Source of the DNA: Candidatus Shapirobacteria bacterium
GTDB lineage: Bacteria > Patescibacteriota > Microgenomatia > UBA12405
Length of the DNA: 64,000 nt
Assembly: GCA_041674845.1 (NCBI GenBank)
Contig: JBAYUY010000001.1
Coordinates: 33,962 to 97,961, forward strand
Direction: 5' to 3'
Part shown: piece after piece, positions 47,609 to 64,000 of the stretch
Layout: each line of letters starts with the position of its first letter
How positions within the stretch are numbered: the first letter of the stretch is position 1
The notes under the pieces: model-generated
The model's input: only the letters and a program-made list of their open reading frames with translations
What the model was told of the DNA's origin: nothing
Databases searched by the model: none
Made by a program: the position numbers and the translations under genes

Positions 47609-47683
47609 TCCCCTGTAGCTCAATGGTAGAGCGCCCGCCTGTTAAGCGGATGGTTTGTGGTCCGAATCCACACGGGGGAGCCA
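47609..47683 (+). tRNA. tRNA-Asn (GTT)
   Basis: Manual fold: TCCCCTG/CGGGGGA acceptor; anticodon loop CTGTTAA; CCA encoded; C27:A43 mismatch. Confidence 0.85.
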
Positions 47684-49255
47684 ACTTGGATTTGCAGGTC
47701 GCAAATCATCATATTTAGCCATGATTTCCGTATACTTTTGAGGTTCCAGCCAACCTTTATATTTACTGTCCCAGTTTTGTTTATTGGCCAGTACTCCATA
47801 TTCAGGTTTTAGGTCAACTTCCAGCATTTTGTCAGGTTTAAGTAATAGGTTCTCGCCAACAGTTAGAAGTATCATTTGTCTGTCTTCTCTAGTACCTATT
47901 TTAAACTTATTCTGACACGCCTTAGCAAAATCAATAGTCTTTTCTACTTTTACTCTCCAGTCCTCCAAATCTTCATCTGTATTTGCTAATTTTGACTTAA
48001 TTTCATTTTTTTCCTTCTCAAGATTTTGTTTCTTTTCCTTGTAAGTCGCATCGTCTATACTTTCATCCAACTTCATGTCCAAAAGCCTATTTAATCGGAT
48101 TTCTACCTTGGATAATTGGGATTGTTGATTTTTTAGTTTTTCCTCCTTAAAACCAGACTCATCCTTGTGAACAGCAGATAACCATTTATTTGACCAGTCA
48201 ACAAAATCTTGGTCGGGAGCTAAACTGGCTAAAATTTTATCAATTTGATTTAAAATGTCATTCTCGGTCAGTGGTTTTGAATGGCATTGTATATTTTTAT
48301 TTTTTCTAGTGCAGTAATAATAAACATAGGTAGCTGTTCTGCCAGTACCCTTGTAATACTTTATTTTTTGCGTTGCCGTCATTGCAGAGCCACACTCAGT
48401 ACAGCGAAATAGACCAGTCAAATCAAAAGTATGTTTTCTGGCAATCGGTTTTCCAAACTTGCCCAAAGCTCTTTGAACTACATCAAACTCTTCCCTGGTA
48501 ATCATTGGTGTGTGGGATCCTTTAAACCAGTTTCCAGAGTTCTTAGGCCATTCATACTCGCCATAATAAAATGGTTTTGTTAATAAATTGTAAAATGTTG
48601 ATTGAGAAATGACTCTTCCTTGCTGACTGGTTAATTTCCATTCTTCTGAAACTTCACGGTAAACTTCGCATGGCTGTTTCCCTGAAATTACTTCAGCAAA
48701 CATTCTTTTTACTAAAGGAAACCTTTCCTCATCAATAACTATTTCCTTAAACCCCTTTTTGCCAGTTGGTGTATTTTTGTATCCTAGTGTGGCAGGAGCA
48801 GGATACCAACCCATCTCCGCCTTAGTTTTCATACCTCTCTGACTATTTTTACCAAGATCGTCTATGAATTTTTGTGCCATACCAAATTCTAAGGACATCA
48901 ACAGACTGTCTTCGTTTATTTGAGAATACGTTTTACTAGGGGTAATGATTTCCACCTTCAAGTCTTTCATTGCCCAACTGATAGCACCACCATCAACGGG
49001 ATTTCTTGATAGTCTGTCTAATTTCCAGCATAAAATACCTTCGGCATCACCCTTTGCTAGTCCAGACATCATTTCTGCGAATAGTGGTCTGCCTGGAGCT
49101 TTTGCAGACATTGACTCCTCAAAAGTTTCAATAATTGTTAATTCAGCCTTATTGGCGAACTGTCTAAGTTCTTTAACCTGAGAAGGAAGAGATAACATTT
49201 GTTTATCCTCACCTTCTGACGATCTCCTGCAATACATGTATACTCTTTTTTTCAT
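47642..49255 (-). CDS. large serine recombinase
   Basis: YCRRSSEGE nucleophile motif; recombinase domain; zinc ribbon CTECGS...YYCTRKNKNIQC; coiled-coil. The last 14 codons are encoded by the tRNA-Asn 3' half. Confidence 0.85.
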   Translation of the reverse strand: MKKRVYMYCRRSSEGEDKQMLSLPSQVKELRQFANKAELTIIETFEESMSAKAPGRPLFAEMMSGLAKGDAEGILCWKLDRLSRNPVDGGAISWAMKDLKVEIITPSKTYSQINEDSLLMSLEFGMAQKFIDDLGKNSQRGMKTKAEMGWYPAPATLGYKNTPTGKKGFKEIVIDEERFPLVKRMFAEVISGKQPCEVYREVSEEWKLTSQQGRVISQSTFYNLLTKPFYYGEYEWPKNSGNWFKGSHTPMITREEFDVVQRALGKFGKPIARKHTFDLTGLFRCTECGSAMTATQKIKYYKGTGRTATYVYYYCTRKNKNIQCHSKPLTENDILNQIDKILASLAPDQDFVDWSNKWLSAVHKDESGFKEEKLKNQQSQLSKVEIRLNRLLDMKLDESIDDATYKEKKQNLEKEKNEIKSKLANTDEDLEDWRVKVEKTIDFAKACQNKFKIGTREDRQMILLTVGENLLLKPDKMLEVDLKPEYGVLANKQNWDSKYKGWLEPQKYTEIMAKYDDLRPANPSWLPRVDSDHKPSA

Positions 49256-49274
49256 AGTTCACTTTTTAAAAAAT

Positions 49275-49356
49275 AATGCCCCCACTAGTGCAACCAGAAC
49301 CGTAAAGTCCTGTCTAGTGAGGGCATTAAAAAACTCTACGGATTTTCTGGTTGCAC
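49275..49356 (-). promoter_or_regulatory. interleaved inverted repeats upstream of the recombinase gene
   Basis: A=AATGCCCCCACTAG (49275-88), B=TGCAACCAGAACCGTA (49289-304), A'=CTAGTGAGGGCATT (49314-27), B'=TACGG-att-TTCTGGTTGCA (49337-55). The order A-B-A'-B' is followed by a T-run on the minus strand after A. Confidence 0.5.
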
Positions 49357-49473
49357 TTATATTTTATATCTTTTTGTAATCCAATTCATCTTATTGGAAG
49401 TAGGCACTATAACCATAATTAAATATTTTTTAATTATTACTTTATAGTCATATAACTATATAATTAATAGTTA

Positions 49474-49773
49474 CTATCTATTAACCCCTTCGCCTTTATC
49501 TAATTTATCTTTATAGGCGTCGTAAATTTGTGATTCTAATGCTTCCCAACACATTGAGTCCTCAAAATAGACTTTTGGGAAATACCTCACTCCTTTGAAC
49601 AAAGTTGGTGGTTCAATATTGATATGCTCACCTAACCTCTCATTAAGATAAGCACTTTTCCAAATGGCAAAATCCTTAATTATTATCATCCCGTATTCAC
49701 TGGTATGCATTTCTACGTTTGCATTTGCTAATAAATTACCTTTGTTCTTAATTTTTATTTTTATGTCAGACAT
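49474..49773 (-). CDS. hypothetical protein, weakly SpoVG-like
   Basis: 99 aa; IKIKNKGNLLANANVEM...IIIKDFAIW pattern resembles the SpoVG N-terminus. Confidence 0.3.
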   Translation of the reverse strand: MSDIKIKIKNKGNLLANANVEMHTSEYGMIIIKDFAIWKSAYLNERLGEHINIEPPTLFKGVRYFPKVYFEDSMCWEALESQIYDAYKDKLDKGEGVNR

Positions 49774-49788
49774 TCTTTTATAAAATAA

Positions 49789-50016
49789 TTAACAGTCAAT
49801 ATCCAAAAAAGCGTCCAATGCCTCAAACAAGTCTTTCTCGCTAAAGTACACCCCCTCATTACCCCCGGACCGATAAGTAACACGTAAGTCAAAAGAGCAA
49901 TTTTGAAATTTATTTACCTTAAGAAAATGGAATATTTTACGTGATTTCCTACTGCTTAAACTTTTAACTACTTTTGAGTCCAAGACAACTTTTACTGAGA
50001 TCTTAGGTTTGATCAT
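49789..50016 (-). CDS. hypothetical 75-aa protein
   Basis: ORF in a co-directional tight gene string. Confidence 0.4.
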   Translation of the reverse strand: MIKPKISVKVVLDSKVVKSLSSRKSRKIFHFLKVNKFQNCSFDLRVTYRSGGNEGVYFSEKDLFEALDAFLDIDC

Positions 50017-50158
50017 TTTTTGTTTTTGATGAAATTAATAACCTTAGACTTAAAAATTGTTTTGCCTTGATTTCGGACTCGTTATAATCCAAAAGAACCC
50101 CAAACTTTTGCTGATAAATTTTTTGGAAATCAACCACCGCTTCTTTAGGCAAGTTCAT
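50003..50158 (-). CDS. hypothetical 51-aa protein (unlisted)
   Basis: Hand-translated MNLPKEAVVDFQKIYQQKFGVLLDYNESEIKAKQFLSLRLLISSKTKNDQT; ATGA overlap with the upstream gene stop. Confidence 0.35.
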   Translation of the reverse strand: MNLPKEAVVDFQKIYQQKFGVLLDYNESEIKAKQFLSLRLLISSKTKNDQT

Positions 50159-50403
50159 AAGATTTCATACATTCTTGCCTTTAAATCTTTAATTTGGGTA
50201 AAATGCTCGCAGGCATCAACAGAAAGCCTTTTATTCCAGTAATCGGAAACTAATTTATGGAGTTGTGGGGTATTTTCAAAACAGAACACACAGTTTTTGT
50301 CGGTTGGAGATTTTTCAATCTCAAGAACAGGACAGAACAGAGATAGGGCACTAGCCAAGGCTAACGAGTTGGTTTTATAGTAATATGTATTTTTATCTTT
50401 CAC
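50155..50403 (-). CDS. DUF5659-like small protein
   Basis: YKTNSLALASALSLF...EIEKSPTDKNCVFCFE pattern; paralog at 60543-60779. Confidence 0.5.
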   Translation of the reverse strand: MKDKNTYYYKTNSLALASALSLFCPVLEIEKSPTDKNCVFCFENTPQLHKLVSDYWNKRLSVDACEHFTQIKDLKARMYEIL

Positions 50404-50478
50404 TCAGCAATTTTCCGCCAAGGACGTTCTCTTTTTTATGAGGGTCTTTGTCGGAAAAAGTTCGGAAATTAATTATTC

Positions 50479-51165
50479 TTATTTTGCGTATCTTAAGGAA
50501 ATTTTGTATCCAACACCTCTAATATTTCTCACAAATTGTTTAGCAGTTTTAATAGTCAATCCAACGGAGTTGGTTAGATAATTTAATAAGTCATCCCTGG
50601 TTTCATAAATTTGCTGTTCGGCAATCCTAGGATCTGTCTTTCTCATTTTGTCTAAGCCGAACTCTCTATCAATTTCCTTAAACGATACATATCCTGGGTA
50701 TTTATAAAGTAACAACTTTAATAATTTAATACCATTTTTACCCAATGGTAGATCAAATTTAGTTGTTTTGTAGGTAATTGTGCTTTCTTTTAAATCTATT
50801 GAAATCCTAAATTTAAAGTTAAACAGATTTTTATTGTCATTTCCTACGCGTGCTTTAAGCAGTCGCAAGTAATTTTCTAATGCTTCTTCATCAAGACTAA
50901 ATATAAATAATGGGGCGTTTGTTTGAGGTTTGTTATTTAGCCATCCATCCATGTCTCCTGTAAGTGTGTATCTTGTGTTGCCAGAATTCTCGCAGACATT
51001 TTCAATTACAGCCATTATTTGTTCGTCCGTAGCTAAAGATAAGTTTTGTTGGATATGGTCATACTCAACGTCAATACACTGTGACGTTGCAGCGAACTGG
51101 CTATAAGAGATTAATAAGTCAATCAATTTAATTTGAAGACGATTGAACGGTGTATCAATTTTCAT
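50479..51165 (-). CDS. DNA-binding protein with C-terminal OmpR/PhoB-type winged helix
   Basis: LLKLLLYKYPGYVSFKEI...VRNIRGVGYKISL. Confidence 0.55.
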   Translation of the reverse strand: MKIDTPFNRLQIKLIDLLISYSQFAATSQCIDVEYDHIQQNLSLATDEQIMAVIENVCENSGNTRYTLTGDMDGWLNNKPQTNAPLFIFSLDEEALENYLRLLKARVGNDNKNLFNFKFRISIDLKESTITYKTTKFDLPLGKNGIKLLKLLLYKYPGYVSFKEIDREFGLDKMRKTDPRIAEQQIYETRDDLLNYLTNSVGLTIKTAKQFVRNIRGVGYKISLRYAK

Positions 51166-51232
51166 ACTTATATATATTTGAATCTACCGTATTATCTCCT
51201 ATTTACACTGAAAAATGTCTGGAATATGTGGA

Positions 51233-51472
51233 TCAGAGAAGTGGACGAACAACGTAGTACATGAACATTAGGAATAAGCCAGGCAGTAAGGATATAATTG
51301 CAGCCACCTTAACCTCTTTGTTTTTATGTATTGAAAACAGTAAGGGAATTATGAAAAGTGAAACGATATTTATCGGGCTCTTGTCCCAAAAGTAACCAGT
51401 TAATTGATTAAAGGCATACGAAGAAAGTAAAAATAGTCCAATCCATAAAAACACAATCTTTTTAATTTCCAT
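51233..51472 (-). CDS. small membrane protein (79 aa, 3 TM)
   Basis: Hydrophobic segments only. Confidence 0.4.
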   Translation of the reverse strand: MEIKKIVFLWIGLFLLSSYAFNQLTGYFWDKSPINIVSLFIIPLLFSIHKNKEVKVAAIISLLPGLFLMFMYYVVRPLL

Positions 51473-51502
51473 TTATATTCTTTAATGATTAATATATAAA
51501 CT

Positions 51503-51964
51503 CTAGCGATTTATAAATAACACAACTGCTGAAATTAGCAAAGCTAAAACACATATTGCTACTACATTCTTTTGGGAAGTTGACCAGCTATTAATTTCTG
51601 CCGACTCCTTTGGATATAAACTAGCCAATACTTCTGGGTGCTTAAATAATAGGGGAGCCGTTCCGACTAGCGAGTACAAAGCGTAATTAAAAATTGGTAG
51701 TGAGTCAGAAATATACTTCAGAATCTGAAGAGACGAGCCAATCAGAAAAATACCTACAAAGCTTAAACCCGATATATATGCCAGTTTTTTAGTCCAATCA
51801 CCTGACTTAAAACGCTCTTGTTTTAATAGTGAATAAAATGCAATTGGAAACAAAATTGCAAAAATGACAACAACTATTGGAGCTACTGTGTCCAAAAGCA
51901 TACACATTGGTAAATCTGGGTTAGTACTACAAGCTTGGTTTATTTGATAGCTTAATACGCTCAT
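51503..51964 (-). CDS. membrane protein (153 aa, 4 TM)
   Basis: Hydrophobic segments only. Confidence 0.4.
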   Translation of the reverse strand: MSVLSYQINQACSTNPDLPMCMLLDTVAPIVVVIFAILFPIAFYSLLKQERFKSGDWTKKLAYISGLSFVGIFLIGSSLQILKYISDSLPIFNYALYSLVGTAPLLFKHPEVLASLYPKESAEINSWSTSQKNVVAICVLALLISAVVLFINR

Positions 51965-51991
51965 ATTGATGTTTATGCCACCGATTTAACT

Positions 51992-52008: not shown

Positions 52009-52036
52009 GAAAATATACCATATTTGTGCCCAAAAC

Positions 52037-52052: not shown

Positions 52053-52086
52053 AAACTTATTCTGGATAGATTGGTAACTTTGTTTG

Positions 52087-52305
52087 ATGGAAGACAGGAA
52101 AATTACCCAAAAGGATATACAATTCGGGAGAAAACTTCAAAGAGTCAGGAAAAAAGCTGGTTTAACTCAAGAAAAGCTTGCGGATGAGACACGACTTAGC
52201 ACCACATTTATCGGATTGATTGAAACTGGTAGGAGAAGACCAAGTATGAAGACGCTTCAAAAAATAGCCTCCTCATTGGATATAAACATCAAAGATTTGT
52301 TTTAA
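52087..52305 (+). CDS. XRE-family HTH regulator
   Basis: GRKLQRVRKKAGLTQEKLADETRLSTTFIGLIETGRRRPS. Confidence 0.8.
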   Translation: MEDRKITQKDIQFGRKLQRVRKKAGLTQEKLADETRLSTTFIGLIETGRRRPSMKTLQKIASSLDINIKDLF

Positions 52306-52722
52306 GTCACGCCAGTTAATTATTTTATTTAGGCATGACAGCCTGAGTATATGATTAATTTTGTAGTCAAAACTCAATCACTGTAGTACAGCAAATAATT
52401 GTGTGTTTAGGCCAAAAAAGGATATGAATCTCCGCTTTTCGCTATTATCTTAACCAAATGTAAAACCGTTGTTAATAATCAGTTGGTGTTCTCAAAAGTA
52501 ATTTAATTTGTTAATAGATAAATAAAATGAACGACTTTCGCACATTACTATGAACTTGTTTCACGAGGTAACCATTTCCTCAAAAACAAGTAAACAGCGT
52601 AAACAAGAGACACATTTTACATATAAAGTTTATATATACGAAAAAAAGTAAAAAAAAATCGCCGTATTTATCGCAAAAATAGATAGTAGAAATAGGTAAA
52701 ACAAACTGTTACGATAATGTAG

Positions 52723-53826
52723 GTGAATATAAAATCCGTAGAAAACATAGTTGAGTCGTTCGTTTTTAATGATAATACAAAAGTACTCAGTATTTTATAT
52801 GAAGAACTAAAAAAGGCGAAAGATAGTAAAAAAACTAATTTAGCAAGGAGAATCCAACTATTAATTAGAAAAATACCCAAAAGCCGAATTATTAGCTCTC
52901 AAGGTACTAACTATTTTTCTGGTAATGAGGGAAGCATTCCTAATCCACTTTACGAAAGATTTATTTCCACGACCCCACTGGAAGAAGTAATACTTAACGA
53001 AGATGCAAAAACACTAATCCACCAGTTCATAGAAGAGTGGAATAATATTGATAGGCTAACTGAATTTGGTGTCAGACCAGCGAATAAGTTGCTGTTTTTT
53101 GGCCCTCCAGGTACCGGAAAAACAAAACTAGCATATGCTATTGCAAGTAGCTTAAATATTCCACTTATATTAATTAGACTAGATGAAGTTATATCGTCAT
53201 ATTTAGGTAAAACTGGGAAAAATATCAGAGAAATATTTGATTTAGCAGGTAAAGAAAAGTCTTTAATATTTTTAGACGAAATTGATACCCTTGCTAAACA
53301 TCGTGATGACGAAACTGAATTGGGAGAGCTAAAAAGGGTGGTGACTGTTCTATTGCAAAATATAGATAGTTTTCCAGAAGAATCAATTTTAATAGGTGCA
53401 ACTAATCACGAAAATTTACTTGACAATGCAATATGGCGTAGATTTCCGGTAAAAGTAAACTTTAATTTACCAAATAATAACAGTAGATTAAAACTTTTTG
53501 AACTGTATCTACATCCTTTCAAGTTAGATGTAGATATAAACTTATTGGCGAAAACAACTAAAGGGTTCAGTGGGTCCATGATTAACGATGCGTGTGAAAT
53601 GATGAAAAAGTATACGATCATGTCTCACTCAACAAAATTAAATGTAATAAATGCTTTTAAAGGAATCTTGTACATCTTAGGCTCTCGCAATAATGGAACC
53701 GATATTAAAACTAAAAAAACAGTATATAACATTTTAAGTTTTTTATATAAAAACGGATTTACTCTTAAAGACCTTAGTAAAATATCTTCCATTCCATATA
53801 CAACATTGGTGGATAATATTAAATAA
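52723..53826 (+). CDS. classical AAA+ ATPase (IetA-like)
   Basis: GTG start; Walker A GPPGTGKT; Walker B LIFLDEID; sensor-1 GATNHENLLD; Arg-finger region AIWRRF. Confidence 0.8.
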   Translation: MNIKSVENIVESFVFNDNTKVLSILYEELKKAKDSKKTNLARRIQLLIRKIPKSRIISSQGTNYFSGNEGSIPNPLYERFISTTPLEEVILNEDAKTLIHQFIEEWNNIDRLTEFGVRPANKLLFFGPPGTGKTKLAYAIASSLNIPLILIRLDEVISSYLGKTGKNIREIFDLAGKEKSLIFLDEIDTLAKHRDDETELGELKRVVTVLLQNIDSFPEESILIGATNHENLLDNAIWRRFPVKVNFNLPNNNSRLKLFELYLHPFKLDVDINLLAKTTKGFSGSMINDACEMMKKYTIMSHSTKLNVINAFKGILYILGSRNNGTDIKTKKTVYNILSFLYKNGFTLKDLSKISSIPYTTLVDNIK

Positions 53827-56240
53827 TGTTAAGTAAAATACTAGTACCTAGAAATACAGCAAAAAGAAGTGTGCCTTTTGGTCGGGATGATTTTATGGAA
53901 AAGTTTTGGCTCGGCTTTAATGAGCCGGAGAAATACGAGTCAAAGAAAAAGCTAATCTCTGAGAAGATTCAATCATTAACCTCAAAAGTAAAAGATGACC
54001 ATTGGCTATATGCAGAGATAAAACTAAACGATGACTCAAATACTAAATCTAAACAGCCATCCCTAGTTTGGTCGCAAAGTGGTTTGGACATTGTTTCTGC
54101 TGTTGATTCCCAAAATTACATTATCGGTGGTAAAAAAAATGATTTTGAAAGACTAGATAAAATTATAAGTTCAAGTAAATTTTCTATTGCAAAAACCGGA
54201 GACGGAGTAAGTAAAAAAACAAAGAATTTATATAGAGAAATATACACAATATCAGACTTTACTGATAAGAATACTTCGTATACAGGTAGAGTTGACGCAC
54301 AAATAGAAGAGCTAATCTCAAAGAAAGAATTTGAAACAGATCTGCTCTGTATATTGGAAATCAACTCAAACATTAATAGATCGGAATATGAAGATATCTA
54401 TTTGCAGATCAACTCATTTGTTGGTGACAAAAAAATCAAAAAGCTACCAATAGAGTTATTTATACATAATATGCAATATCAGGGAGCATTCAAGGTCAAA
54501 GAAATTTTTGGCCTGCTTACAGATATCAGATATTCCTATATTTCCCGTATTAAAATTATGCCTTCATACTCATGTCAAAACTGCATACCTAACTATGATC
54601 TTGGAGAAATAAAAATACTTCCTCCAGAGACCAATGAAATTATTGGAATAATTGATAGCGGCATTGATGATAAAAGCAAAATTTTTAACTCCTTAAAATT
54701 CCTTCATTTGAATCGTACGCCAGATGATAAGAAATGCAACAAAAACCACGGAACTTTTGTTGCTAGCCGTATATTATTTGGAGATAAGATATTTAATTCG
54801 GTCCATAACGGTTATTTAGCTCCTTCTGCAAAGTTTCTTGATATTCAAGTCTTGTATGACAACAATCAAGGTGACGGCGATACTGATGTGGACACAGTCC
54901 AACTGAAAACAGTAATTGACGAAGTGATAAACAAGTATGAGGATATACATATTTACAACCTTTCAATTAATGACAAAGAAGGCATACGATATGACATAAT
55001 GCCAGTTGATGATTTATCTGAGTTTATTGATGAACGAGTCCGAGAGAAGGATATTATTTTTGTTGTAAGTAGCGGAAATCATAAATTTTATCCTTCAGGT
55101 GACTACAAAAAGAATCCAGATGACTATTACAAAATATTTTCCGATAATACCACTGATACTCACATTGCGTCACCTGGAGATGCGCTAAATGTAATTACAG
55201 TAGGTTCAAATTCTTTAAATGCGGACAATAATTGTATCTGTAAAGTACAAGGATATCCGTCTCCTTTTACAAGAAAAGGTGGGTTGCGAGGCGGCTGGAA
55301 AAAACCCGAATTGGTAATGGACGGAGGAAACATCTTAGCTCCAAATAATCCTGCTGACTTCAGTGATGATGCCTTTTCGGAGGTTAGTAACAATAAATGT
55401 GGTGTTGAAGGAATAACTTTGGGTGGCAAGTTGTCAAAACAGTGTGGAAGCAGTTTTAGTACCCCACTAGTAACAAGACAGTGTGCATATTTGCTAGATA
55501 ATATTAAGAAGACAAACGCATCAAGTTTGTTAAAGCTTAACGGGAATAGAATAAATCTTGTTAAAGCGTTAATGATTCATTCAACAAATAAAATCCCTCA
55601 AGCTAAGATTGATGACAAAGATTTAAAACTGGCATACGGTTTTGGTGTCCCTGACATAGGAACTCTATTGCGGGATGATGAAAATCAAGTATCTATTGTC
55701 TATAGTGATATCTTGGAATATGATAAAAAAATTCACAAGTTACAAATAAAAATACCAGACGAGTTAGTAGGTGGTTCGGCTGAATTCATTTTCACATTGG
55801 TTTACAATCCTCCTGTAAATAAGAATTATCCAAGTGAATATAACATGACTTCAATTAATTCAAATTTGAGGTTTGTTTTGCCACCAAAGCTAAATACAAA
55901 GACAAATAAATTTGTACAAAACTATAGTCCCCTGATAAACAAATGGAGTTGGGAAAATTATCGTAAAAAATTCTTTAACGTAATTAACTTCAAGAACATT
56001 AAACAAAAAATCCCTTCCACTCTAATTGAAGTTTACGCTCAATTGTCTGTATCACCCTTCTATTTACAGGAAAAACTGGGTCATGAAAAAGAAATACTAC
56101 AACCATACACCTTTGTTCTGACCATAAGAGATGTTTTAAAAAGGAATATTTTACGCAACGAACTACTGTTAAGTAATCAGTTTAATAAGATTGAAATCTC
56201 GCAACAAGTTAAAATAAAAACAGAAATCAATACAAAATAA
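53826..56240 (+). CDS. S8 subtilisin-like serine protease with large N- and C-terminal extensions (IetS-like)
   Basis: Triad motifs IIDSGID (Asp), NHGTFVAS (His), GSSFSTP (Ser); TAATG overlap with the ATPase gene. Confidence 0.8.
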   Translation: MLSKILVPRNTAKRSVPFGRDDFMEKFWLGFNEPEKYESKKKLISEKIQSLTSKVKDDHWLYAEIKLNDDSNTKSKQPSLVWSQSGLDIVSAVDSQNYIIGGKKNDFERLDKIISSSKFSIAKTGDGVSKKTKNLYREIYTISDFTDKNTSYTGRVDAQIEELISKKEFETDLLCILEINSNINRSEYEDIYLQINSFVGDKKIKKLPIELFIHNMQYQGAFKVKEIFGLLTDIRYSYISRIKIMPSYSCQNCIPNYDLGEIKILPPETNEIIGIIDSGIDDKSKIFNSLKFLHLNRTPDDKKCNKNHGTFVASRILFGDKIFNSVHNGYLAPSAKFLDIQVLYDNNQGDGDTDVDTVQLKTVIDEVINKYEDIHIYNLSINDKEGIRYDIMPVDDLSEFIDERVREKDIIFVVSSGNHKFYPSGDYKKNPDDYYKIFSDNTTDTHIASPGDALNVITVGSNSLNADNNCICKVQGYPSPFTRKGGLRGGWKKPELVMDGGNILAPNNPADFSDDAFSEVSNNKCGVEGITLGGKLSKQCGSSFSTPLVTRQCAYLLDNIKKTNASSLLKLNGNRINLVKALMIHSTNKIPQAKIDDKDLKLAYGFGVPDIGTLLRDDENQVSIVYSDILEYDKKIHKLQIKIPDELVGGSAEFIFTLVYNPPVNKNYPSEYNMTSINSNLRFVLPPKLNTKTNKFVQNYSPLINKWSWENYRKKFFNVINFKNIKQKIPSTLIEVYAQLSVSPFYLQEKLGHEKEILQPYTFVLTIRDVLKRNILRNELLLSNQFNKIEISQQVKIKTEINTK

Positions 56241-56432: not shown

Positions 56433-57689
56433 ATGGGTCCAATAATAATATTTGATAAGTCAGCACTTCAATCAATTAGCTTGGATGAATCAGTTTTTCT
56501 TCAAAACTTTTTTCTAACGAATATGACACCTATTTTTTTAATTGAAACTCTTGCTGACTTGGAGAAGGAACCAAATAAAGGGAAAAGCCCAGAGCAAATA
56601 GTAGGCGAGTTGGCAAATAAGACACCGGAAATGGGGATTATGCCTAATATATATCATCATAATTTAGTTATTGGAGATTTGTTGGGGCGTACCGTTGAGA
56701 TGAGCAGGCGTCCAATTATTGACGGTGGAACACCAAAAATTACACCAGATGGAAAGATAGGTTTTTACTTTGACGAGCCTCCAGAAAAAAAGGCGCTAAA
56801 AAGATGGCAAGACAGGAAGTTTTTAGAAGTAGAAAGAGATTATGCAAGAGAATGGAGACAATCATTGTCCAATCTCAGTTTTGAAACTCAAATGGGAATG
56901 GTAAAAAATATTGTCCCTCCAGAAGTACATTTTAGTAACCTTTCCGACATAAAGGCATTTATTGATAAATTTATTGCAACTAAAGATAAGTCTGTTCTTG
57001 ACTTAGCTTTTGAAATTCTGGAAGTACCAAGTAAATTACGCACTTTTGTTTACGAAAGGTGGAATAAGGATGGGCAACCACCTATTAATATTTTTTCGCC
57101 TTATGCATCTTTTGTCTTATCGGTTGATTTAGTTTTTTACTTGGGCTTAAATTCAAGCTTTATCTCTAAGGACAGGCCGAGTAATAAAATTGACCTTTCC
57201 TATCTTTATTACCTACCTTTTTGTATGGTATTCGTTTCAAAAGACAAACTTCACCAAAGAACAGTACCTCTATTCTTAAAAGAAGGACAGGTCTTTGTTT
57301 GGGGAGATGATTTTAAGGAGGGGATGAAAGAACTAGATAATTATTTTTCCCAGTATCAGGAAGAAATTAGTAAGCACGGACTTATCAGATTTGCCCCCTA
57401 CCCACCACAAAACTCTTTTATATCAAAGCTTTGGGACACAATGGGGTCAAAATGGAGAGGTGATGCAAGCAAAGCGCCGTTAGCAAAATCTTTTCCAACA
57501 CTACCCAATGACAGTTCATTAGTAAAACGTTTAAATAAGATGAGGGATGAAGCAAAACCGCTTGCTAATCCAGAGTTATATTCACCAGATGATGCCGACC
57601 ATGTAACTATTTCTCATATGGTTCACCTTAATAAGGGTAAATGGCGAATCCTTCCTGAAGGGATTGAAAATAACGGTGATAAAGATTAA
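56433..57689 (+). CDS. hypothetical 418-aa protein, possible split PIN-like nuclease
   Basis: N-terminal IIIFDKSALQSISL...LIETLADL and distal YYLPFCMVFVSKDK resemble PIN acidic motifs; weak. Confidence 0.3.
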   Translation: MGPIIIFDKSALQSISLDESVFLQNFFLTNMTPIFLIETLADLEKEPNKGKSPEQIVGELANKTPEMGIMPNIYHHNLVIGDLLGRTVEMSRRPIIDGGTPKITPDGKIGFYFDEPPEKKALKRWQDRKFLEVERDYAREWRQSLSNLSFETQMGMVKNIVPPEVHFSNLSDIKAFIDKFIATKDKSVLDLAFEILEVPSKLRTFVYERWNKDGQPPINIFSPYASFVLSVDLVFYLGLNSSFISKDRPSNKIDLSYLYYLPFCMVFVSKDKLHQRTVPLFLKEGQVFVWGDDFKEGMKELDNYFSQYQEEISKHGLIRFAPYPPQNSFISKLWDTMGSKWRGDASKAPLAKSFPTLPNDSSLVKRLNKMRDEAKPLANPELYSPDDADHVTISHMVHLNKGKWRILPEGIENNGDKD

Positions 57690-57750
57690 CTTTAAACCAT
57701 CTAATTATTGGTGTTATTATTTATTTAATATAGTCGTTTATTAAGAAAAT

Positions 57751-58053
57751 ATGGCATTAATCAATTGTCCTGAATGTAAACAACAAATTTCTGACACTGC
57801 TCCAACCTGTCCACATTGTGGTTTTATCCAACATGCTACACCCGTTGAAGGTTCTGGAAACTTAAATCAAAAAACAATTACAATTGAATCAACAAATAAG
57901 ACATGGAAATTGGTCATGATAGTGGCTATTTTAGTGTTTATTATTGGTGGTATGGTGGGTGCTTCTGATAGAGAATTCGGTTTTTCTTTAGTCGGATTGA
58001 GTGTATTAATTTTTATCGTAGCAAAAATTGGTGCTTGGTGGAGCAATAAATAA
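57751..58053 (+). CDS. zinc-ribbon protein with two C-terminal TM helices
   Basis: CPECKQQISDTAPTCPHCG, then two hydrophobic helices. Confidence 0.6.
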   Translation: MALINCPECKQQISDTAPTCPHCGFIQHATPVEGSGNLNQKTITIESTNKTWKLVMIVAILVFIIGGMVGASDREFGFSLVGLSVLIFIVAKIGAWWSNK

Positions 58054-58077
58054 AGGTATTTACCGCCTAAGTTATCT

Positions 58078-59616
58078 TTAATACCCACACACAGCAGTCC
58101 TAATTGACTCCAAGGCGGGGAGCAGAGACTTACTTAATATAACCTTATTATTTTCCGCTAAGATAGAGATAATTGGTGTGTAGACTACTCTCGATATTTG
58201 ACGATCCTTGACATAAATCTTCTCAAAAAAGAATCTGAGGTAATGTCGTTTCAAAAACTCGGGAGCGTCAATGTAAGTTTGATGAATGTTTTGTGTAAAA
58301 GATAGAACTTCCTCAACTAAATTGATTTCTAAGTTTCCACCCTTTTCGATCTTATTGATTTCATTGCTAATGTTTTCGATCCTATCTTGAATCTCGGTGT
58401 GTTTGCGTTTAAAGACGGTTCTATCAATAGTCCCGTCGAGTAAGTTGTCCTCTAATCGATTTCTTTTGGTCTCAAGGCCGGTCTTTTGGTTGACATAGGC
58501 CTGTATTCTTGAAGCCGTGTTTTTTCTGCCATCGGCGATATGTTCTTTACACTTTTCGATCACCATATCGATAAATGTTTGTGAGAATTGAACTGTTTTC
58601 ATTAGTTCTTCAACTTGTGTTTCCAAATTTACCATTTCAATATAAACAGCTGGACAATTATTTCGGTCCCTTTTAGGACAGTGATAATAAGCTATTTTAC
58701 CTCCTCGAGCCTTTAAACTCACTTCGTCCTTGTGCCATTCGGCGGTGAATCTTTGCCCACAATGGTCACAATAAATAAAGCCTCTTAATAAAAAATTGTG
58801 TACTCGTTTGCGGATTAAAAAACTTCGGTGCTTGGCTGCCACATATTGGCAAATGTCGTACAGTTCTTTGGTAATTATTGGTATCTGATTACCCATTTTT
58901 GATTCACCATGCCATCGTATAAGGCCGTAATAGAAGGGATTTCGCAAAATATTATTTAATGTACTCCTGCCAAATATTGTGCCATTTTTAGAGACCATAT
59001 TTCGGTCCTCTAACCAATCTTGTAAATATATGAGTGAATAGTTGCCGGTTGAATAAAGTTCATATAGTTCCTTAACGATTGGAGCAACCACTGGATCAGG
59101 GATACAAGTTTTTCGTTCTCTGTCTCCACCGATTGATTTATAACCAATCGGTGGGGGAGTTGGTTGCCAACCCTCAAAATACTTTTGACTTAGGGCGTCT
59201 CTTGTCCTTTGCCCATTAACCTCACTTTCCCATTGAGCCACACTGGCAAAAATGTTTGGAATCAGACTATTTCCTCCTTCCATTAAATCACCCTCATTGA
59301 TTGACAGCAATTTAATATTCTTATCTTTTAGGGTTGCGTACATTCGGGTGAAGTCGTTAACATTTCGAGCAAACCGATCAATTTTATAAATAATCACTGC
59401 GTCTACCGGTTCTTCTTCAATCAACTTAAACATTCTTTGTAACTCTGGCCTGTCGGCTGTTTTACCACTTTTTCCACTATCATCAAAAATTTCCTTTATG
59501 CGATATTCACGATCCTTAGCGTATTGCCGACATTGTCTAATCTGATTGTCAGTTGAGAATCCCTCATTCTTTTGTTCGTCAGATGAAACACGGATATATA
59601 GATAACAGTTTTTCAT
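58078..59616 (-). CDS. large serine recombinase
   Basis: YIRVSSDEQ nucleophile motif; DRFARN; recombinase domain; zinc ribbon CDHCGQ...YYHCPKRDRNNC; coiled-coil. Confidence 0.85.
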   Translation of the reverse strand: MKNCYLYIRVSSDEQKNEGFSTDNQIRQCRQYAKDREYRIKEIFDDSGKSGKTADRPELQRMFKLIEEEPVDAVIIYKIDRFARNVNDFTRMYATLKDKNIKLLSINEGDLMEGGNSLIPNIFASVAQWESEVNGQRTRDALSQKYFEGWQPTPPPIGYKSIGGDRERKTCIPDPVVAPIVKELYELYSTGNYSLIYLQDWLEDRNMVSKNGTIFGRSTLNNILRNPFYYGLIRWHGESKMGNQIPIITKELYDICQYVAAKHRSFLIRKRVHNFLLRGFIYCDHCGQRFTAEWHKDEVSLKARGGKIAYYHCPKRDRNNCPAVYIEMVNLETQVEELMKTVQFSQTFIDMVIEKCKEHIADGRKNTASRIQAYVNQKTGLETKRNRLEDNLLDGTIDRTVFKRKHTEIQDRIENISNEINKIEKGGNLEINLVEEVLSFTQNIHQTYIDAPEFLKRHYLRFFFEKIYVKDRQISRVVYTPIISILAENNKVILSKSLLPALESIRTAVCGY

Positions 59617-59618
59617 AT

Positions 59619-60011
59619 TTATTTTATGGATAAATTTGTAAAGTCTAAATACGTGTCGGGTCTCTCGGGACCAAGGTCAACAGCAACAACAGTTATTCCT
59701 GGGCTGGCAAATTCAATCATTTTTCTTACGATTGAATTACTTTTTCTTCCTAATCTTGTGAAATCTGCAACAATAAGGTATTCGACGTTATAAAGTCGCT
59801 CTAAGCACTTAACCAATAAAAATAGTCCTCTTCTTGTAATTTGATTTCCACTAATCCCTCTGTCGTGAATTACTCTTCTTACGATAACGCCTTTTTCTCT
59901 GGCATATTTTCGACATTTTCTTTCTTGTTGAGCGAGCGAGATAATTCCAGCATATTTTTCTGTTTTCGCTTTTCGAACATATATTAAACACGATCTTTTA
60001 TTTCTATACAT
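59619..60011 (-). CDS. resolvase-domain-only paralog lacking the canonical nucleophile Ser
   Basis: 130 aa; IYVRKAKTEK in place of Y-x-R-V-S-S/T; retains DRGISG and ADFTRLGR motifs; 2-nt gap to the recombinase gene. Confidence 0.6.
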   Translation of the reverse strand: MYRNKRSCLIYVRKAKTEKYAGIISLAQQERKCRKYAREKGVIVRRVIHDRGISGNQITRRGLFLLVKCLERLYNVEYLIVADFTRLGRKSNSIVRKMIEFASPGITVVAVDLGPERPDTYLDFTNLSIK

Positions 60012-60085
60012 ATATTTTTTAATCTATAAATCTAACTTAATAACTTATACTAACTTATACATTATATACCTCCTAACAAACATAT

Positions 60086-60508
60086 TTACTTGCTCATATT
60101 TAATACCTCCTTCATACTAGATAAACCTTTAACACTCCTTTTTCCTTTTCCTTTTAGATAAGTATTAATAGTCGGAAGTGTGGAACCGTTATGGAGGGGA
60201 ACAATGCTTCTTATCTGATCGGAACTGCCGTTCCTATATATCTCTAAATGTTTTGATACTTTGTAAGTGTTAGATTGATTAAATCCGTGACGAGTTTTGT
60301 ATACTAGGCCAGCATTAATTAGCTCATCGGTTAAATCACGAATATACCGAGTGGAGACTCGTACTCGTTTTGCTAATAATTCTTGTCCGGGAAAACACCA
60401 GTCATCCTTACCACAGTGTTTAATTAATACGCAATAAAGTAGCACAGCAGGAGCAGATAGTTGAGAAGGTTCAAAGATTTCGTTGGGTATCATGGAGAAG
60501 TTTTTCAT
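60086..60508 (-). CDS. helix-turn-helix protein (replication-initiator / regulator-like)
   Basis: IPNEIFEPSQLSAPAVLLYCVLIKHCGKD..CFPGQELLAKRVRVSTRYIRDLTDELINAGLV. Confidence 0.55.
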   Translation of the reverse strand: MKNFSMIPNEIFEPSQLSAPAVLLYCVLIKHCGKDDWCFPGQELLAKRVRVSTRYIRDLTDELINAGLVYKTRHGFNQSNTYKVSKHLEIYRNGSSDQIRSIVPLHNGSTLPTINTYLKGKGKRSVKGLSSMKEVLNMSK

Positions 60509-60542
60509 TTTTATTTTTATATTTATTTTTAACTTCTCCTAA

Positions 60543-60779
60543 CTAATCGCTATAAATTAACTGTTTTAAGTCCTTTTGGGCACTAAAAAATCGGTGGGGT
60601 TCTATTAGCGCCTCATAGCGCAAGAATTTATCGGTGGCTGACTTTCGTAATTCGTTTTCTTCAAAGTTAAATATCACCCGCCTTGGGTCACTTTTATCAA
60701 CAGATTTCAATGAACACCCTTCGCAGAGTAATAGGCTAGCTAATTGAAAATTATCGGTTGGGAAATATTTATCGGGCAT
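60543..60779 (-). CDS. DUF5659-like small protein
   Basis: FQLASLLLCEGCSLKSVDKSDPRRVIFNFEE; paralog of 50155-50403. Confidence 0.5.
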   Translation of the reverse strand: MPDKYFPTDNFQLASLLLCEGCSLKSVDKSDPRRVIFNFEENELRKSATDKFLRYEALIEPHRFFSAQKDLKQLIYSD

Positions 60780-60945
60780 TTGAGAGTTCTAAATTTTTAT
60801 TTTTATCTTTATTGGCCACGTTAAAGGCCGGATATAATTCAGGATTTCTTTTATAGCTGATATTTGCCAAGACAATCTCAAACCATTGCTGAGCGGCTTG
60901 TTCTACAACTTTTTTATTTATAACTGTCGTGTTCATTAGGTCCAT
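60769..60945 (-). CDS. hypothetical 58-aa protein (unlisted)
   Basis: Hand-translated MDLMNTTVINKKVVEQAAQQWFEIVLANISYKRNPELYPAFNVANKDKNKNLELSNAR; overlaps the downstream start. Confidence 0.25.
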   Translation of the reverse strand: MDLMNTTVINKKVVEQAAQQWFEIVLANISYKRNPELYPAFNVANKDKNKNLELSNAR

Positions 60946-61005
60946 TTTGACCTAACAATAGGACCATTAAAAAATACAAAGTGGTACCACTTTTCCTCAC
61001 ATTTA

Positions 61006-61818
61006 TTACCTTATGTCTTTTATTCTTTTCTTAAAATCGACAACTATTTGTCTTACTGCGGTATTTTCGATATTATAGAAGTTTTTTGGATCTTCATCAT
61101 CAGACACATAATTCAGTTTTTCGAGTATTTCCTTTACCTTATATCCAAGTTTGTAATAGATATAAACCAAAAGATCTCTCCTAAAGTATTTGTATTTTTT
61201 TGAAAGTGGATATGAGCAAAGTGATTTTTTAATATTACTGATGTCCTTCCAATTTTCCTTAATAAAGTTGATCAATTTTGTTTTAGTGGTATCTTTATAA
61301 ATTCTCAAAGATAATTTAATTGGAACTTCTGAGTCAACAAACTTTTCCCTAGCCTCACCATAATCCAACTCTATTTTTGTTTTATATCGGTATTCTTCGG
61401 GGGTAAAATGATATTCAAACCATTCATAGTCTGGCGGAACAGAAACCCCAACAGTACCATAATACAGAAAGTCTAGAATCATATCGCCATATAGTTTCCA
61501 TTCGACATTGTATTCATTACAAAGTTCGACGATAGGTTTATCATATGAATTTACTGGTGTGTTTGGTGTTTTATTTACATAATCTAGATATGAATCATAT
61601 CCCTTTTTTTCTTTATCCTGTCCATAAAATTCATTTGGTATTTTAAAACTATGTCTCATTTTTATTATTCTGTTTAAAAATTGTTTATCAGAAATTAACG
61701 AAACTATCGTCATATATTGTTCTTGGTATTTTTCAACTTTTTCTTCTTCATTCTTACTTACTTGATCTAACAAGCACTCAAAGTTTTTCCGTTCAAAATC
61801 TGACAGAGTATTTTTCAT
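61006..61818 (-). CDS. hypothetical 270-aa protein
   Basis: Long ORF, no recognised motif; C-terminal 50 aa may be an HTH. Confidence 0.45.
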   Translation of the reverse strand: MKNTLSDFERKNFECLLDQVSKNEEEKVEKYQEQYMTIVSLISDKQFLNRIIKMRHSFKIPNEFYGQDKEKKGYDSYLDYVNKTPNTPVNSYDKPIVELCNEYNVEWKLYGDMILDFLYYGTVGVSVPPDYEWFEYHFTPEEYRYKTKIELDYGEAREKFVDSEVPIKLSLRIYKDTTKTKLINFIKENWKDISNIKKSLCSYPLSKKYKYFRRDLLVYIYYKLGYKVKEILEKLNYVSDDEDPKNFYNIENTAVRQIVVDFKKRIKDIR

Positions 61819-61985
61819 TTTTATATTTATGTTTATGTTTGTACTTAGGCATATTATACGTCGTTCAAAATTAAAAATAATCGGTATTTTTCAGCTACTA
61901 TTGTCAATAGGGCTAAATCGACATATAATTACCTCAACAATCAGTTTGCCTAAACTCTACAGCAATGTGGGGCATGGTAATAAAT

Positions 61986-62030
61986 CCGAGTTAAGGGGCG
62001 CAAGCTCTCTGTTAGCTTTCCTTAACTCGG
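61986..62030 (+). other. strong hairpin within a relatively GC-rich non-coding stretch
   Basis: Perfect 11-bp stem CCGAGTTAAGG / CCTTAACTCGG with a 23-nt loop; further stems (GATTC-GAAA-GAGTC, CTCTC...GAGAG) up to about 62110. Confidence 0.5.
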
Positions 62031-62150
62031 TAATATGTCGAAAGATATATTGGATTGATTCGAAAGAGTCTCTCCGGTTAGCAGAGAGCTTTTGCCTTTC
62101 TGCTGGCATACCACTGATCAATTTATTATTTGAGAGCTAATAAATTGACT

Positions 62151-62651
62151 ATGAAGAAAGCCATTATCATCGGGGTCGTTGTTATATTAATTCTCATTTC
62201 CATATCCACTAGAACCGCTTACAATTCGTCGACTAACACGGCGAACAATACGGTCTCACCAGTGACGCCACAATCAACGATTATCCCTACGCCTAGGTAT
62301 GAATACAAAATATTAAATAAAGCTCAAAATAAGCTCTTCGACATGATTTCGGTCTTAGTAAATACCGATGAGGCCAATGGCGAGGCAATTGCCATTGAGG
62401 TTAAAAAGTCATGTTCGAAAAAATGTACCGTTGATATCTACGATGATCAAAAAGCGTTTGACCTTCAAAATGAATATACTGCTTTACTTGGACAGTCCGG
62501 AACTCAATCGAGTGACCTTACAAATTGGAAAAAGAAAAACACCGTATATCTAGCTGATCATTTTATTGGCTCGATTGATTCCGACTCTGAAAGTTATCAA
62601 CCATTTCCATTCAAAGATTGGTATTACAAAGAGTTGAAAGGGCAGAAGTAA
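62151..62651 (+). CDS. membrane-anchored/secreted hypothetical protein
   Basis: Start trimmed to MKKAIIIGVVVILILISIS signal anchor. Confidence 0.5.
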   Translation: MKKAIIIGVVVILILISISTRTAYNSSTNTANNTVSPVTPQSTIIPTPRYEYKILNKAQNKLFDMISVLVNTDEANGEAIAIEVKKSCSKKCTVDIYDDQKAFDLQNEYTALLGQSGTQSSDLTNWKKKNTVYLADHFIGSIDSDSESYQPFPFKDWYYKELKGQK

Positions 62652-62731
62652 CTCTGTCCGATTGGTCGAGGTCTAGCTAAATAAGTTGTTTTGGACTACA
62701 ATCCATTTATTAAGTAAGTGGAACTAATTGT

Positions 62732-62926
62732 ATGTCCAAAAATAAAACAACAAAATTACTCAGAATAAGCGAAGCCGCCAATATGTTGGGTGTAAACCCT
62801 GAGACTCTTCGTCGTTGGGACGGAGTTGAAGGTAAACCCAAACCTATCATTATCAGTGTTCGTGGCGACCGTAGATATAAAAAAGAGGACTTAGAAAAGT
62901 TTATTGAGAAAAATAAAAATAAATAA
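62732..62926 (+). CDS. excisionase/MerR-type HTH protein
   Basis: LLRISEAANMLGVNPETLRRWD. Confidence 0.7.
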   Translation: MSKNKTTKLLRISEAANMLGVNPETLRRWDGVEGKPKPIIISVRGDRRYKKEDLEKFIEKNKNK

Positions 62927-64000
62927 ATGTCTCGAAAAATAGGAAAACAAAATAATAATTTAATAACTCCTGGGATACATCCAATATCGAGTAATATTGA
63001 TGTTGCAGCAATTAGTTTGGTAAATAGTATACTTGCTTCAAATGGCGGATGTTCGCCTGATTTGAAGTCTCGAGATACTTGGCCAAATACTGATGGAAAC
63101 ATCGAACTACTTACTGCTACTGGTGAACCCGATGGACTGTTGACAACTCAAGTTAAACAAGTAAAGGTAGGAAAGAAATCTATCTCATATACTTTCAAAA
63201 ACAATAAGTTTGTCAACTATTGCAAAAGAGAAAGAGGGCTACCGGTAATATTTATCGGAGTTGACTTAAACAATCAAAAAGCATATTGGCTAGAAATGTC
63301 ACTGAGTTATGCCAATTCTGTTAAATCAAAAACAATACATATTCTAAAGGAAAATGTAATCGAACAAGGAAATGTGAGTTATTTACCTGTTTGGAAATAC
63401 ATTTGTGATAATCGGAAGAGACTTATCGAATCAGGTTTAGGGTATGATTTTTCGAATAATAAGCTAAATCTGCAAAAGTCTGCGATTACTCAACTATATA
63501 CAGTTTTACCGCAATCCGAGTTACTTCAAAAAAATGTTGATGCTGTTAACTCCATCATAAATGATATTAAGGAAAAAATACTTTCGTATGAGGGGATATT
63601 ATTTCTTGTATCTCCAACATATATAAATAATGCAAAAACACGGGGAATAATTCGAAAGATATTGAGTATCACGGTTCAACAGGAAGATTTGTTCATTGAT
63701 GAGTTGGGTAAAAAAGGCATACTCGTTAAAACAGGAGATATTGTTTCTTTTCAAGAAGATTCTTTAGGTCGAGAGAAAGTGTCATTTTTATTTACAAACA
63801 GTTTGCTGGATATAACAAAGATATATATATCATTCGATGACATTAAAATAAGAAAGACAATATTAAATAAAATTGCTGGTATTCATGGAATCAAACAGAT
63901 CGATGATTTTTTTGGAAAAATCAGTAAGGAATTTCTTGACAAATTGATAAAAATAAAGAGTAATGATGACATAAAAACAAATTTAGAGTTACTTGAAGAG
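62927..64000 (+). CDS. large protein with N-terminal DUF4365-like PD-(D/E)xK domain (partial, runs off the window)
   Basis: Not in the ORF track because it has no stop; the ATG directly follows the TAA of the HTH gene. Open for 358 codons. TDGNIELL...TTQVKQVK resembles the D...E-x-K / QVK motif of DUF4365. Confidence 0.5.
   Translation, partial: MSRKIGKQNNNLITPGIHPISSNIDVAAISLVNSILASNGGCSPDLKSRDTWPNTDGNIELLTATGEPDGLLTTQVKQVKVGKKSISYTFKNNKFVNYCKRERGLPVIFIGVDLNNQKAYWLEMSLSYANSVKSKTIHILKENVIEQGNVSYLPVWKYICDNRKRLIESGLGYDFSNNKLNLQKSAITQLYTVLPQSELLQKNVDAVNSIINDIKEKILSYEGILFLVSPTYINNAKTRGIIRKILSITVQQEDLFIDELGKKGILVKTGDIVSFQEDSLGREKVSFLFTNSLLDITKIYISFDDIKIRKTILNKIAGIHGIKQIDDFFGKISKEFLDKLIKIKSNDDIKTNLELLEE

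Follow-up and report, generated by a model that had tools for sequence, protein, structure and literature searches.

A probable tandem array of serine-recombinase elements at tRNA-Asn in Candidatus Shapirobacteria, with predicted attP sites inside the recombinase reading frames

Large serine recombinases (LSRs) of phages and of integrative and conjugative elements (SPbeta SprA, A118/LI Int, phiC31, Bxb1) act on attachment (att) sites that share few bases around a central dinucleotide, and their known targets are protein genes or intergenic sites. In the survey by Durrant et al., which covers thousands of LSRs, targets are grouped by protein gene and tRNA is never mentioned (PMC10083194). Here we analysed a stretch of 64,000 nucleotides (the window) from a Candidatus Shapirobacteria genome (GCA_041674845.1, contig JBAYUY010000001.1, positions 33,962 to 97,961), in which two LSR genes lie beside tRNA-Asn. 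Their products have the three-domain architecture of the phage and conjugative-element enzymes, of which they are distant sequence kin, and their att sites likewise share few bases; here, however, a tRNA gene is targeted at its 3′ end, and the phage-type site attP lies inside the recombinase open reading frame (ORF). The locus probably holds two integrative elements in tandem at the tRNA-Asn 3′ end, with attP spanned by the ORF, crossover within a GAG trinucleotide and a predicted swap of the recombinase tail on integration.

Several described systems share parts of this design. In Myxococcus phage Mx8 (IntP/IntX), attP likewise lies within the integrase gene and integration makes a new 3′ end (PMC6070905; Tojo et al. 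1996, cited in PMC4383910); a change of the tail is reported to alter the activity or direction of Mx8 Int (PMC6070905). Mx8 Int is a tyrosine recombinase, whereas the proteins considered here are serine recombinases, for which such a change in activity is conjectural. Archaeal integrases of the SSV type also carry the site within the integrase ORF and target a tRNA gene (PMC7253208), but they are tyrosine recombinases whose gene is split and inactivated, whereas here only a tail of 13–48 residues is exchanged. Islander tRNA islands resemble our locus in their tandem accretion at a tRNA gene and in their defence cargo; they use a tyrosine integrase and leave the displaced tRNA fragment as a long direct repeat, whereas here the enzyme is a serine recombinase, the repeat is 7 bp long and nothing is displaced. 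Open-access full texts yielded nothing relevant on tRNA-targeting serine recombinases from Patescibacteria or Saccharibacteria, and we found no published description of such an integrase with an attP-spanning ORF. The attP-spanning ORF as such is known from the tyrosine enzymes of Mx8 and SSV. An earlier reading of this DNA (the sequence-only reading) had called a serine recombinase overlapping a tRNA gene unusual, in agreement with the published standard.

LSR1, tRNA-Asn and the boundaries of element 1

Plain coordinates refer to the window, which is G000:C1:33962-97961, where C1 is the main contig (949 kb, 34.8% G+C) of the 1.2-Mb assembly G000. Judged by the names attached to homologues, the genome belongs to the Patescibacteria/CPR of the Microgenomates type. 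ARAGORN finds a single tRNA-Asn on this contig, tRNA-Asn(GTT) at 47609-47683 on the forward strand, and the LSR1 gene (47642-49255, reverse strand; 537 amino acids (aa) in the integrated form) converges on it. Pfam assigns to LSR1 the Resolvase (PF00239, E 4e-20), Recombinase (PF07508) and Zn_ribbon_recom (PF13408) domains, and distant sequence matches are SPbeta SprA (9dxh, E 1e-11) and 4kis (E 2e-4). LSR1 and the recombinase of the second element, LSR3, both possess a catalytic serine domain together with the Recombinase and zinc-ribbon domains, with the serine-nucleophile motifs YCRRSS and YIRVSS, respectively, in their translations. None of the 20 element ORFs scanned with Pfam matches a tyrosine-recombinase family.

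The sequence-only reading had placed the LSR1 stop at 47642, inside tRNA-Asn, and this holds to the base: tRNA bases 47642-47683, read as their reverse complement, encode the final 13 sense codons (WLPRVDSDHKPSA) and the TAA stop, which pairs with a TTA made up of the second and third anticodon bases and the base after them. The element-encoded part of LSR1 ends ...NPSWL, and the tail PRVDSDHKPSA that precedes the stop is read from antisense tRNA. This overlap is not due to chance, as 15 of 30 loci from this genome and 40 relatives and 36 of 80 species-level loci are alike (see below). The earlier reading had also reported no direct repeat of the tRNA 3′ end in the window. The tRNA 3′ half indeed has no copy in the window or on the 949-kb contig, and no tRNA segment of at least 13 nt recurs downstream of tRNA-Asn, but a 7-bp repeat, GGGGAGC, is present (47675-47681 and 58117-58123); it is too short to catch the eye and was therefore missed. 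This 7-mer is the sole repeat linking the ends of element 1.

A paralogue allowed us to place the ends of element 1. Among the five LSR genes of this genome, LSR2 (C1:270110-271702) is 59% identical to LSR1 and heads a module with the genes of element 1 in the order of element 1. This paralogous element splits a ykuD L,D-transpeptidase gene into an N-terminal part (C1:281912-282202) and a C-terminal part (C1:269824-270261), so its empty site can be rebuilt: when the flanks are joined at GGAG they give one open frame, ...TSVGDFRISS/GKWDRTPIGEYKI... (GKWDRTPIGEY...; a slash marks a junction). The rebuilt site fixes an element of 11,791 bp (G000:C1:270142-281932) with only the core GGAG shared, its attL being CCCATTTGCCGGAG/CCATATTGGATTTGC and its attR TTCCAAAGCAGGGAG/GAAATTC. 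DNA homology between element 1 and this paralogue begins exactly at GGAGCCA at the left end. At the right end, 22 of 31 nt are common to the last 31 nt of the paralogue and window positions 58092-58122, both sequences end in GGGAG, and the 949-kb contig holds no better match to these terminal 31 nt. Taken together, the homologies at the two ends place the boundaries of element 1 at 47680 and 58121, a length of 10,442 bp.

The two copies of GGGGAGC form the cores of attL and attR. The latter lies at the junction with element 2 and is a hybrid attP-like site, made of the P arm of element 1 and the P′ arm of element 2. Since the cores shared by attL and attR (GGGGAGC in element 1, GGAG in the ykuD element and GAGCA in an element of the relative G012) intersect in GAG, the crossover would lie 4-6 nt from the CCA end of the tRNA, and the most likely crossover dinucleotide is GA, at 47678-47679 in attL and 58120-58121 in attR. 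On the coding strand, the joined ends carry a dyad, CCAAG-N12-CTTGG, centred on the GA of GGAG, which fits the imperfect dyad of a serine-integrase attP. The tRNA is host DNA to about 47679, and its final four nucleotides, G73-CCA (47680-47683), come from the P′ arm of element 1; the tRNA-Asn genes of relatives that carry different elements at this site do not encode the CCA. A crossover near the CCA end, and not at the anticodon, would explain why the repeat is only 7 bp long and nothing has been displaced. A short shared core with no long repeat is found in the ykuD element (GGAG), in element 1 (7 bp) and in G016, a member of the same genus (GGGGGAGC).

G016 carries a single element of 7,313 bp at tRNA-Asn, with attL ...CTTAGAGGGGGA/GCCAACTTTG and attR ...TTTTAGGGGGA/GCAGTT followed immediately by AAAAAATCCCCAAGAATGGGGATTTTTTT, a hairpin and T-run that looks like the tRNA's own terminator, moved by 7 kb. 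These sites bear on a more conventional account, in which the locus is a classical tRNA island with crossover in the anticodon region and the element supplies the tRNA 3′ half, which is at the same time the end of the recombinase ORF. The LSR1 stop does lie exactly in the anticodon loop, and such an arrangement is usual for tyrosine-integrase islands (PMC4383910). However, the displaced tRNA 3′ half is absent from the 949-kb contig, homology with the paralogue starts only at GGAGCCA, the G016 tRNA terminator directly follows GGGGGAGC at attR, and the ykuD empty site has only GGAG in common; we consider an anticodon-region crossover very improbable. A hairpin at 47689-47707 was examined as a replacement terminator for the tRNA. 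It is terminator-like in a scan, but its folding z-score is only -1.1 and its pairing decays in diverged relatives with no compensating changes, leaving this idea unsupported.

With the crossover near the CCA end, specific junctions can be predicted. The attP on an element 1 circle would read ...CTCCAAGGCGGGGAGCCAACTTGGATTTGC..., also written ...GACTCCAAGGCGGGGAGCCAACTTGGATTTGC...; the site freed of element 1 would read ...CACACGGGGGAGCAGAGACTTAC..., also written ...ATCCACACGGGGGAGCAGAGACTTACTTAAT...; and the island-free site would read ...CACACGGGGGAGTAAATGGAAC..., also written ...ATCCACACGGGGGAGTAAATGGAACTATT.... Element 1 holds no internal inverted copy of attP.

Element 1 consists, in order, of P′ arm, LSR1, a conserved small-gene module, an XRE gene, IetAS cargo and P arm. 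The accessory module (49474-51964, reverse strand) encodes proteins of 99, 75 and 51 aa, a DUF5659 protein (50155-50403, reverse strand; Pfam E 6e-12), a 228-aa protein and two membrane proteins (51233-51472 and 51503-51964, reverse strand); the paralogous element has the counterparts of these genes in unchanged order, and the module gave no PHROGs matches. The DUF5659 protein was rejected as a recognisable excisionase-like fold, since its confident model (predicted local distance difference test, pLDDT, 88) has no fold match in the PDB below E 0.5. An XRE-type helix-turn-helix (HTH) regulator (52084-52305, forward strand; Pfam HTH_3, E 3.5e-14) is the last gene in common with the paralogue, and homology stops about 25 nt past its stop codon. 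The cargo on the forward strand comprises IetA, an AAA+ ATPase (52723-53826; PADLOC E 1.2e-96, Pfam AAA), IetS, an S8 subtilase (53826-56240; PADLOC E 1.5e-67, Pfam Peptidase_S8), and, at 56433-58053, a 418-aa protein with no family assigned and a 100-aa membrane protein with a Pfam zinc ribbon only. According to their coordinates, the two ORFs overlap by one base, which closes the IetA stop codon and opens the IetS start codon, and to judge from the family matches the two are an IetAS defence pair. Neither of the other two cargo proteins matched PADLOC, nor did the 418-aa protein match PHROGs. The PHROGs search of the element genes found no phage-structural or conjugative genes; the only matches among small genes were an HTH_36 replication-initiator-like protein and a resolvase fragment.

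The cessation of nucleotide homology with the paralogue at about 52330 could also mean that element 1 ends after the XRE gene, with the IetAS genes and the P arm (52331-58121) forming a separate remnant that lacks a recombinase. Against this, the paralogue has the same make-up of core module, unrelated cargo and homologous P arm within one 11.8-kb unit between the ykuD halves, related elements bear restriction-modification and other defence genes at the cargo position of element 1, and no att-like core is found near 52330. A separate remnant is therefore quite unlikely, and we retain the 10,442-bp element.

Other features of the paralogues are worth recording. The ykuD site that was used resembles the tRNA-Asn 3′ end at 12 of 20 nt. 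From ORF translations alone, the cargo of the ykuD element includes a cytosine methyltransferase-like protein that may form a restriction pair with an adjacent 362-aa protein. The ORF of a third LSR runs into tRNA-Glu(TTC); a perfect 34-bp inverted repeat flanks this recombinase (C1:251935-251968 and 253528-253561), its right copy overlapping the tRNA end by about 4 nt, with a G+C-rich palindrome just inside.

A reading frame across attP and the exchange of tails

When the right end of element 1 is joined to the left, LSR1 continues in frame, ...DDLRPANPSWL/PALESIRTAVCGY and a stop, to give 539 aa. The ykuD element joined in the same way gives ...NPIWL/PALEQIRMAVCGL and a stop (534 aa), and the rebuilt LSR of G016 ends PLKDLFCNHKLEFDISLSDLKIAFDEIGLKQPKLALATI and a stop, 89% identical to the tail of the homologue P0032. 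The native tail of LSR1 is thus encoded 10 kb away, at the other end of element 1, where the P arm (58078-58121, reverse strand) would supply this tail and its stop in the circle.

The two 42-nt tail segments, from element 1 and its paralogue, differ at 14 positions, with 2, 3 and 9 differences at codon positions 1, 2 and 3; seven codons differ only synonymously and three non-synonymously, and past the tail stop the similarity drops to 14 of 42. Such third-position bias, with the loss of similarity after the stop, carries the signature expected of translated sequence, and the tail frame is complete only across the joined element ends. In-frame tails lie on the far ends of three elements, conserved with third-position variation. 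These comparisons show, at the level of sequence, that attP lies within the ORF and that the tail is exchanged on integration.

We propose that a serine recombinase moves each element, with the acceptor and T-arm end of the tRNA serving as attB. Strand exchange would involve a dinucleotide of the GAG that lies 4-6 nt from the CCA end and would keep the tRNA intact, the element donating only G73-CCA and displacing no tRNA fragment. Since the ORF crosses attP, integration would cut off the native tail encoded on the P arm and substitute an antisense-tRNA peptide that runs to the stop in the anticodon loop; the location of attP inside the recombinase ORF would also be the reason why this ORF reads into the tRNA.

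We tentatively suggest, as a possibility, that the tail swap is a built-in switch, the excised form with its native tail and the integrated form with its tRNA tail differing in activity or direction, and that hybrid attP sites allow P arms and tails to be exchanged between recombinase lineages that are 25% identical. The excised form would bear a conserved native tail of up to 48 residues with the motif (D/E)x(V/I)RT. It is speculative that the swap alters activity or direction by analogy with Mx8 Int, and equally speculative that, with the native terminator displaced, transcription of the tRNA continues into the recombinase gene on the antisense strand.

Element 2 and the order of insertion

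The description of two LSR elements in tandem at tRNA-Asn given by the sequence-only reading is borne out by the LSR domains, the tRNA call and the mapped ends. Of its account of the second module, the differing LSR, the parallel gene order and the DUF5659 gene stand, whereas the start at 58078 does not, the element boundary being 58121/58122. LSR3 (58078-59616, reverse strand; 512 aa) shares with LSR1 about 25% identity and all three domains (PF00239, E 2e-36; PF07508; PF13408). Its own coding sequence ends ...KSLL (58122), and the last 14 codons of the ORF are the right end of element 1, so that LSR3 now ends PALESIRTAVCGY and a stop, read from the P arm of element 1. In a reconstruction that lacks element 1, LSR3 becomes ...KSLL/LPRVDSDHKPSA and a stop, with the tRNA-derived PRVDSDHKPSA as its end, the same tail as in integrated LSR1.

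Element 1 would have inserted last, into the junction of the tRNA with element 2, which would explain why LSR3 now reads into the P arm of element 1. Element 1 is most likely the later arrival. In the opposite order, element 1 would have come first, at the native site, and element 2 would have entered attR of element 1 later; close to the core, the P arm of element 1 agrees with the tRNA arm at 10 of 15 nt and could thus have served as a pseudo-attB half-site. However, relatives of LSR3 sit at tRNA-Asn itself, and where elements accrete at tRNA sites the newest usually lies next to the tRNA. We regard the opposite order as rather unlikely.

The far end of element 2 was sought by backward translation from every GGAG in the next 18 kb. 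A site at C1:110304-110307 (about window 76343-76346), ...GATTGGGGA/GTAAATGG, extends LSR3 into a 48-aa tail, PNRSVNIIPNFQAIIDMLTEIKYFGEMKQRWLEIQKLTAGEKLNVATV and a stop, which aligns over its full length with the C-termini of the homologues P0030 (60% identity, E 7e-16) and P0227 (E 7e-5). Given this alignment with P0030, element 2 is about 18.2 kb long (about 18,224 bp), with its right end at about 76345, some 12 kb past the window, which holds its left 5.9 kb (58122-64000). A further decayed element inside element 2 is possible. The whole island of both elements measures about 28.7 kb.

The accessory genes of element 2 (59619-61818, reverse strand; Pfam) include those for 58-aa and 270-aa proteins. 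The first of them is a resolvase-N-domain ORF of 130 aa (59619-60011, reverse strand; Pfam E 5e-12), in the translation of which YVRKAKTE replaces the catalytic YIRVSSDE and the nucleophile serine is absent; it stops 3 nt before the LSR3 start and could be a remnant or a regulatory paralogue. It is followed by the HTH_36 replication-initiator-like protein (60086-60508, reverse strand; PHROGs phrog_270, replication initiation, E 7e-12) and the DUF5659 gene (60543-60779, reverse strand; Pfam E 1e-11). The cargo includes a 1081-aa DUF4365 protein (Pfam; forward strand), whose gene begins at 62927 and continues beyond the window and which has a weak PADLOC match to an Aga REase-like model, and element 2 also bears a dehydrogenase and epimerase gene set. 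At two other loci (L067 and L068, compared with window 60086-61818), the closest homologue of LSR1 (76% identity) is accompanied by accessory genes of the element 2 type, namely those for a 280-aa protein, DUF5659, a 58-aa protein and HTH_36. An LSR1-like recombinase with such genes indicates that recombinase and accessory modules are reshuffled between elements.

Distribution of the design and its implications

Two samples were used to assess how widespread the overlap is. In the local sample of 30 LSR loci from the window genome and 40 relatives, the LSR stop lies inside a convergent tRNA in 15 (Asn 8, Glu 2, Gln 2, and Lys, Tyr, Val and Ser 1 each); in a one-genome-per-species collection this is so for 36 of 80 loci (Asn 19, His 8, Gln 8, Gly 1), while a further 8 run off their contig. 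Among the candidates scored, 1,362 are homologous to LSR1 at E <= 1e-30, and all of these read ...DLRPANPxWL and then diverge. Among the best 120, about 56 have T-loop tails (DSN; for example PRVDSNHEPSA, which is GGTTCGAATCC backwards), 33 stop within two codons and about 17 have non-tRNA, native-type tails. The LSR3 family (544 homologues) shows the same pattern of tRNA-derived tails. The non-tRNA tails carry the motif (D/E)x(V/I)RT(Y/F) across proteins that are 35-60% identical. These sequence comparisons show the design to be a general one, common in Patescibacteria.

Tails also cross lineages: those of P0036 and P0174 are identical at 29 of 34 residues, with bodies 28% identical, which fits LSR3 here, whose tail comes from its neighbour's P arm. 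Locus L064 looks alike, with a second module that ends in a 533-aa ORF at the contig end and with a second DLRPANPVWL motif in the locus. Some native-looking tails in databases may therefore be the P arms of neighbours.

The sequence-only reading had named a conserved, non-mobile context and an assembly artefact as explanations that would undo its proposal. A G+C content equal to that of the host and the failure to see an excised form would suit a fixed region of this kind. But relatives share genes up to topA and synteny breaks exactly at the tRNA; in G003, the genes that here lie just beyond the island (C1:111398-112686, 30 kb downstream) follow tRNA-Asn within 0.8 kb. Moreover, the overlap recurs in the identical reading frame in dozens of independent assemblies, and this genome has another copy that interrupts a gene. 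A fixed region or an artefactual overlap is thus extremely unlikely. The two elements are presumably mobile at present.

Several points weigh against the tandem-element interpretation. Neither an empty site nor a circle junction was found, nor a strain free of element 1. The comparison with related genomes free of the insertion, proposed earlier, turned up none at this locus; relatives in the genus have 65-80% nucleotide identity and are therefore too diverged to give an exact empty site. A metagenome scan with a 24-mer from the T-arm and acceptor gave one match, from another species that also has an LSR, and scans of viral and genome collections with attP and P′-arm patterns gave no matches. 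The predicted right end of element 1 rests on 44 nt of homology and on coding logic, and element 1 would have entered a hybrid of tRNA and element 2 instead of a native attB. The analysis identified no recombination directionality factor, and the elements show no contrast with the host in G+C content.

Other observations concern tRNA-Asn and its surroundings. In G011 (L044, C11 1210-1439), a group I intron (Rfam RF00028, 70 bits) sits within tRNA-Asn, 3′ of the anticodon, and no intact tRNA-Asn is detected there by ARAGORN. A homologous split is seen in G001:C4 and G020:C2, the G020 halves lying about 265 bp apart with a recombinase just past the 3′ half. In G003:C29 (L053), at about 6608-6630, TCCCCTGTAGC/CCCGCCTG lies about 80 nt upstream of an intact tRNA-Asn and looks like a tRNA-Asn 5′ part of the window-genome sequence type that lacks the D-arm. 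In the present assembly, contig C2 has a second tRNA set that includes another tRNA-Asn. Contigs C4, C6-C8, C13, C17 and others have 52-70% G+C versus 35% on the main contig; these small G+C-rich contigs are probably contamination of the bin. An A+T-only 30-mer, TAAAAATTAAAAATTTTAAATTAAAAATTT, occurs at window 46363-46404 and 47559-47600, an inverted pair that brackets a 1.15-kb ORF-poor stretch from topA to tRNA-Asn, and in more than 15 further copies on C1, many of them exact. A G+C-rich motif, CCTCCAAAGGCGGGCAGG, is found at four intergenic sites (window 32116; C1:111252, 219078 and 931956); it resembles the inner part of the P arm of element 1, CTCCAAGGCGGGGAG, and its copies could be old att remnants or an unrelated hairpin.

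Collectively, the locus contradicts a stated rule of thumb, by which only tyrosine integrases use tRNA genes as targets. It points to a large set, as yet uncharacterised, of serine integrases whose natural targets are short and highly conserved, which bears on the trade in defence genes in the candidate phyla radiation; since these targets are conserved tRNA ends, the enzymes are candidate genome-engineering tools. If true, the tail swap would offer a simple, testable idea of how a serine integrase could sense its own integration state, and P arms and tails would pass between recombinase lineages through the hybrid attP sites of tandem arrays.

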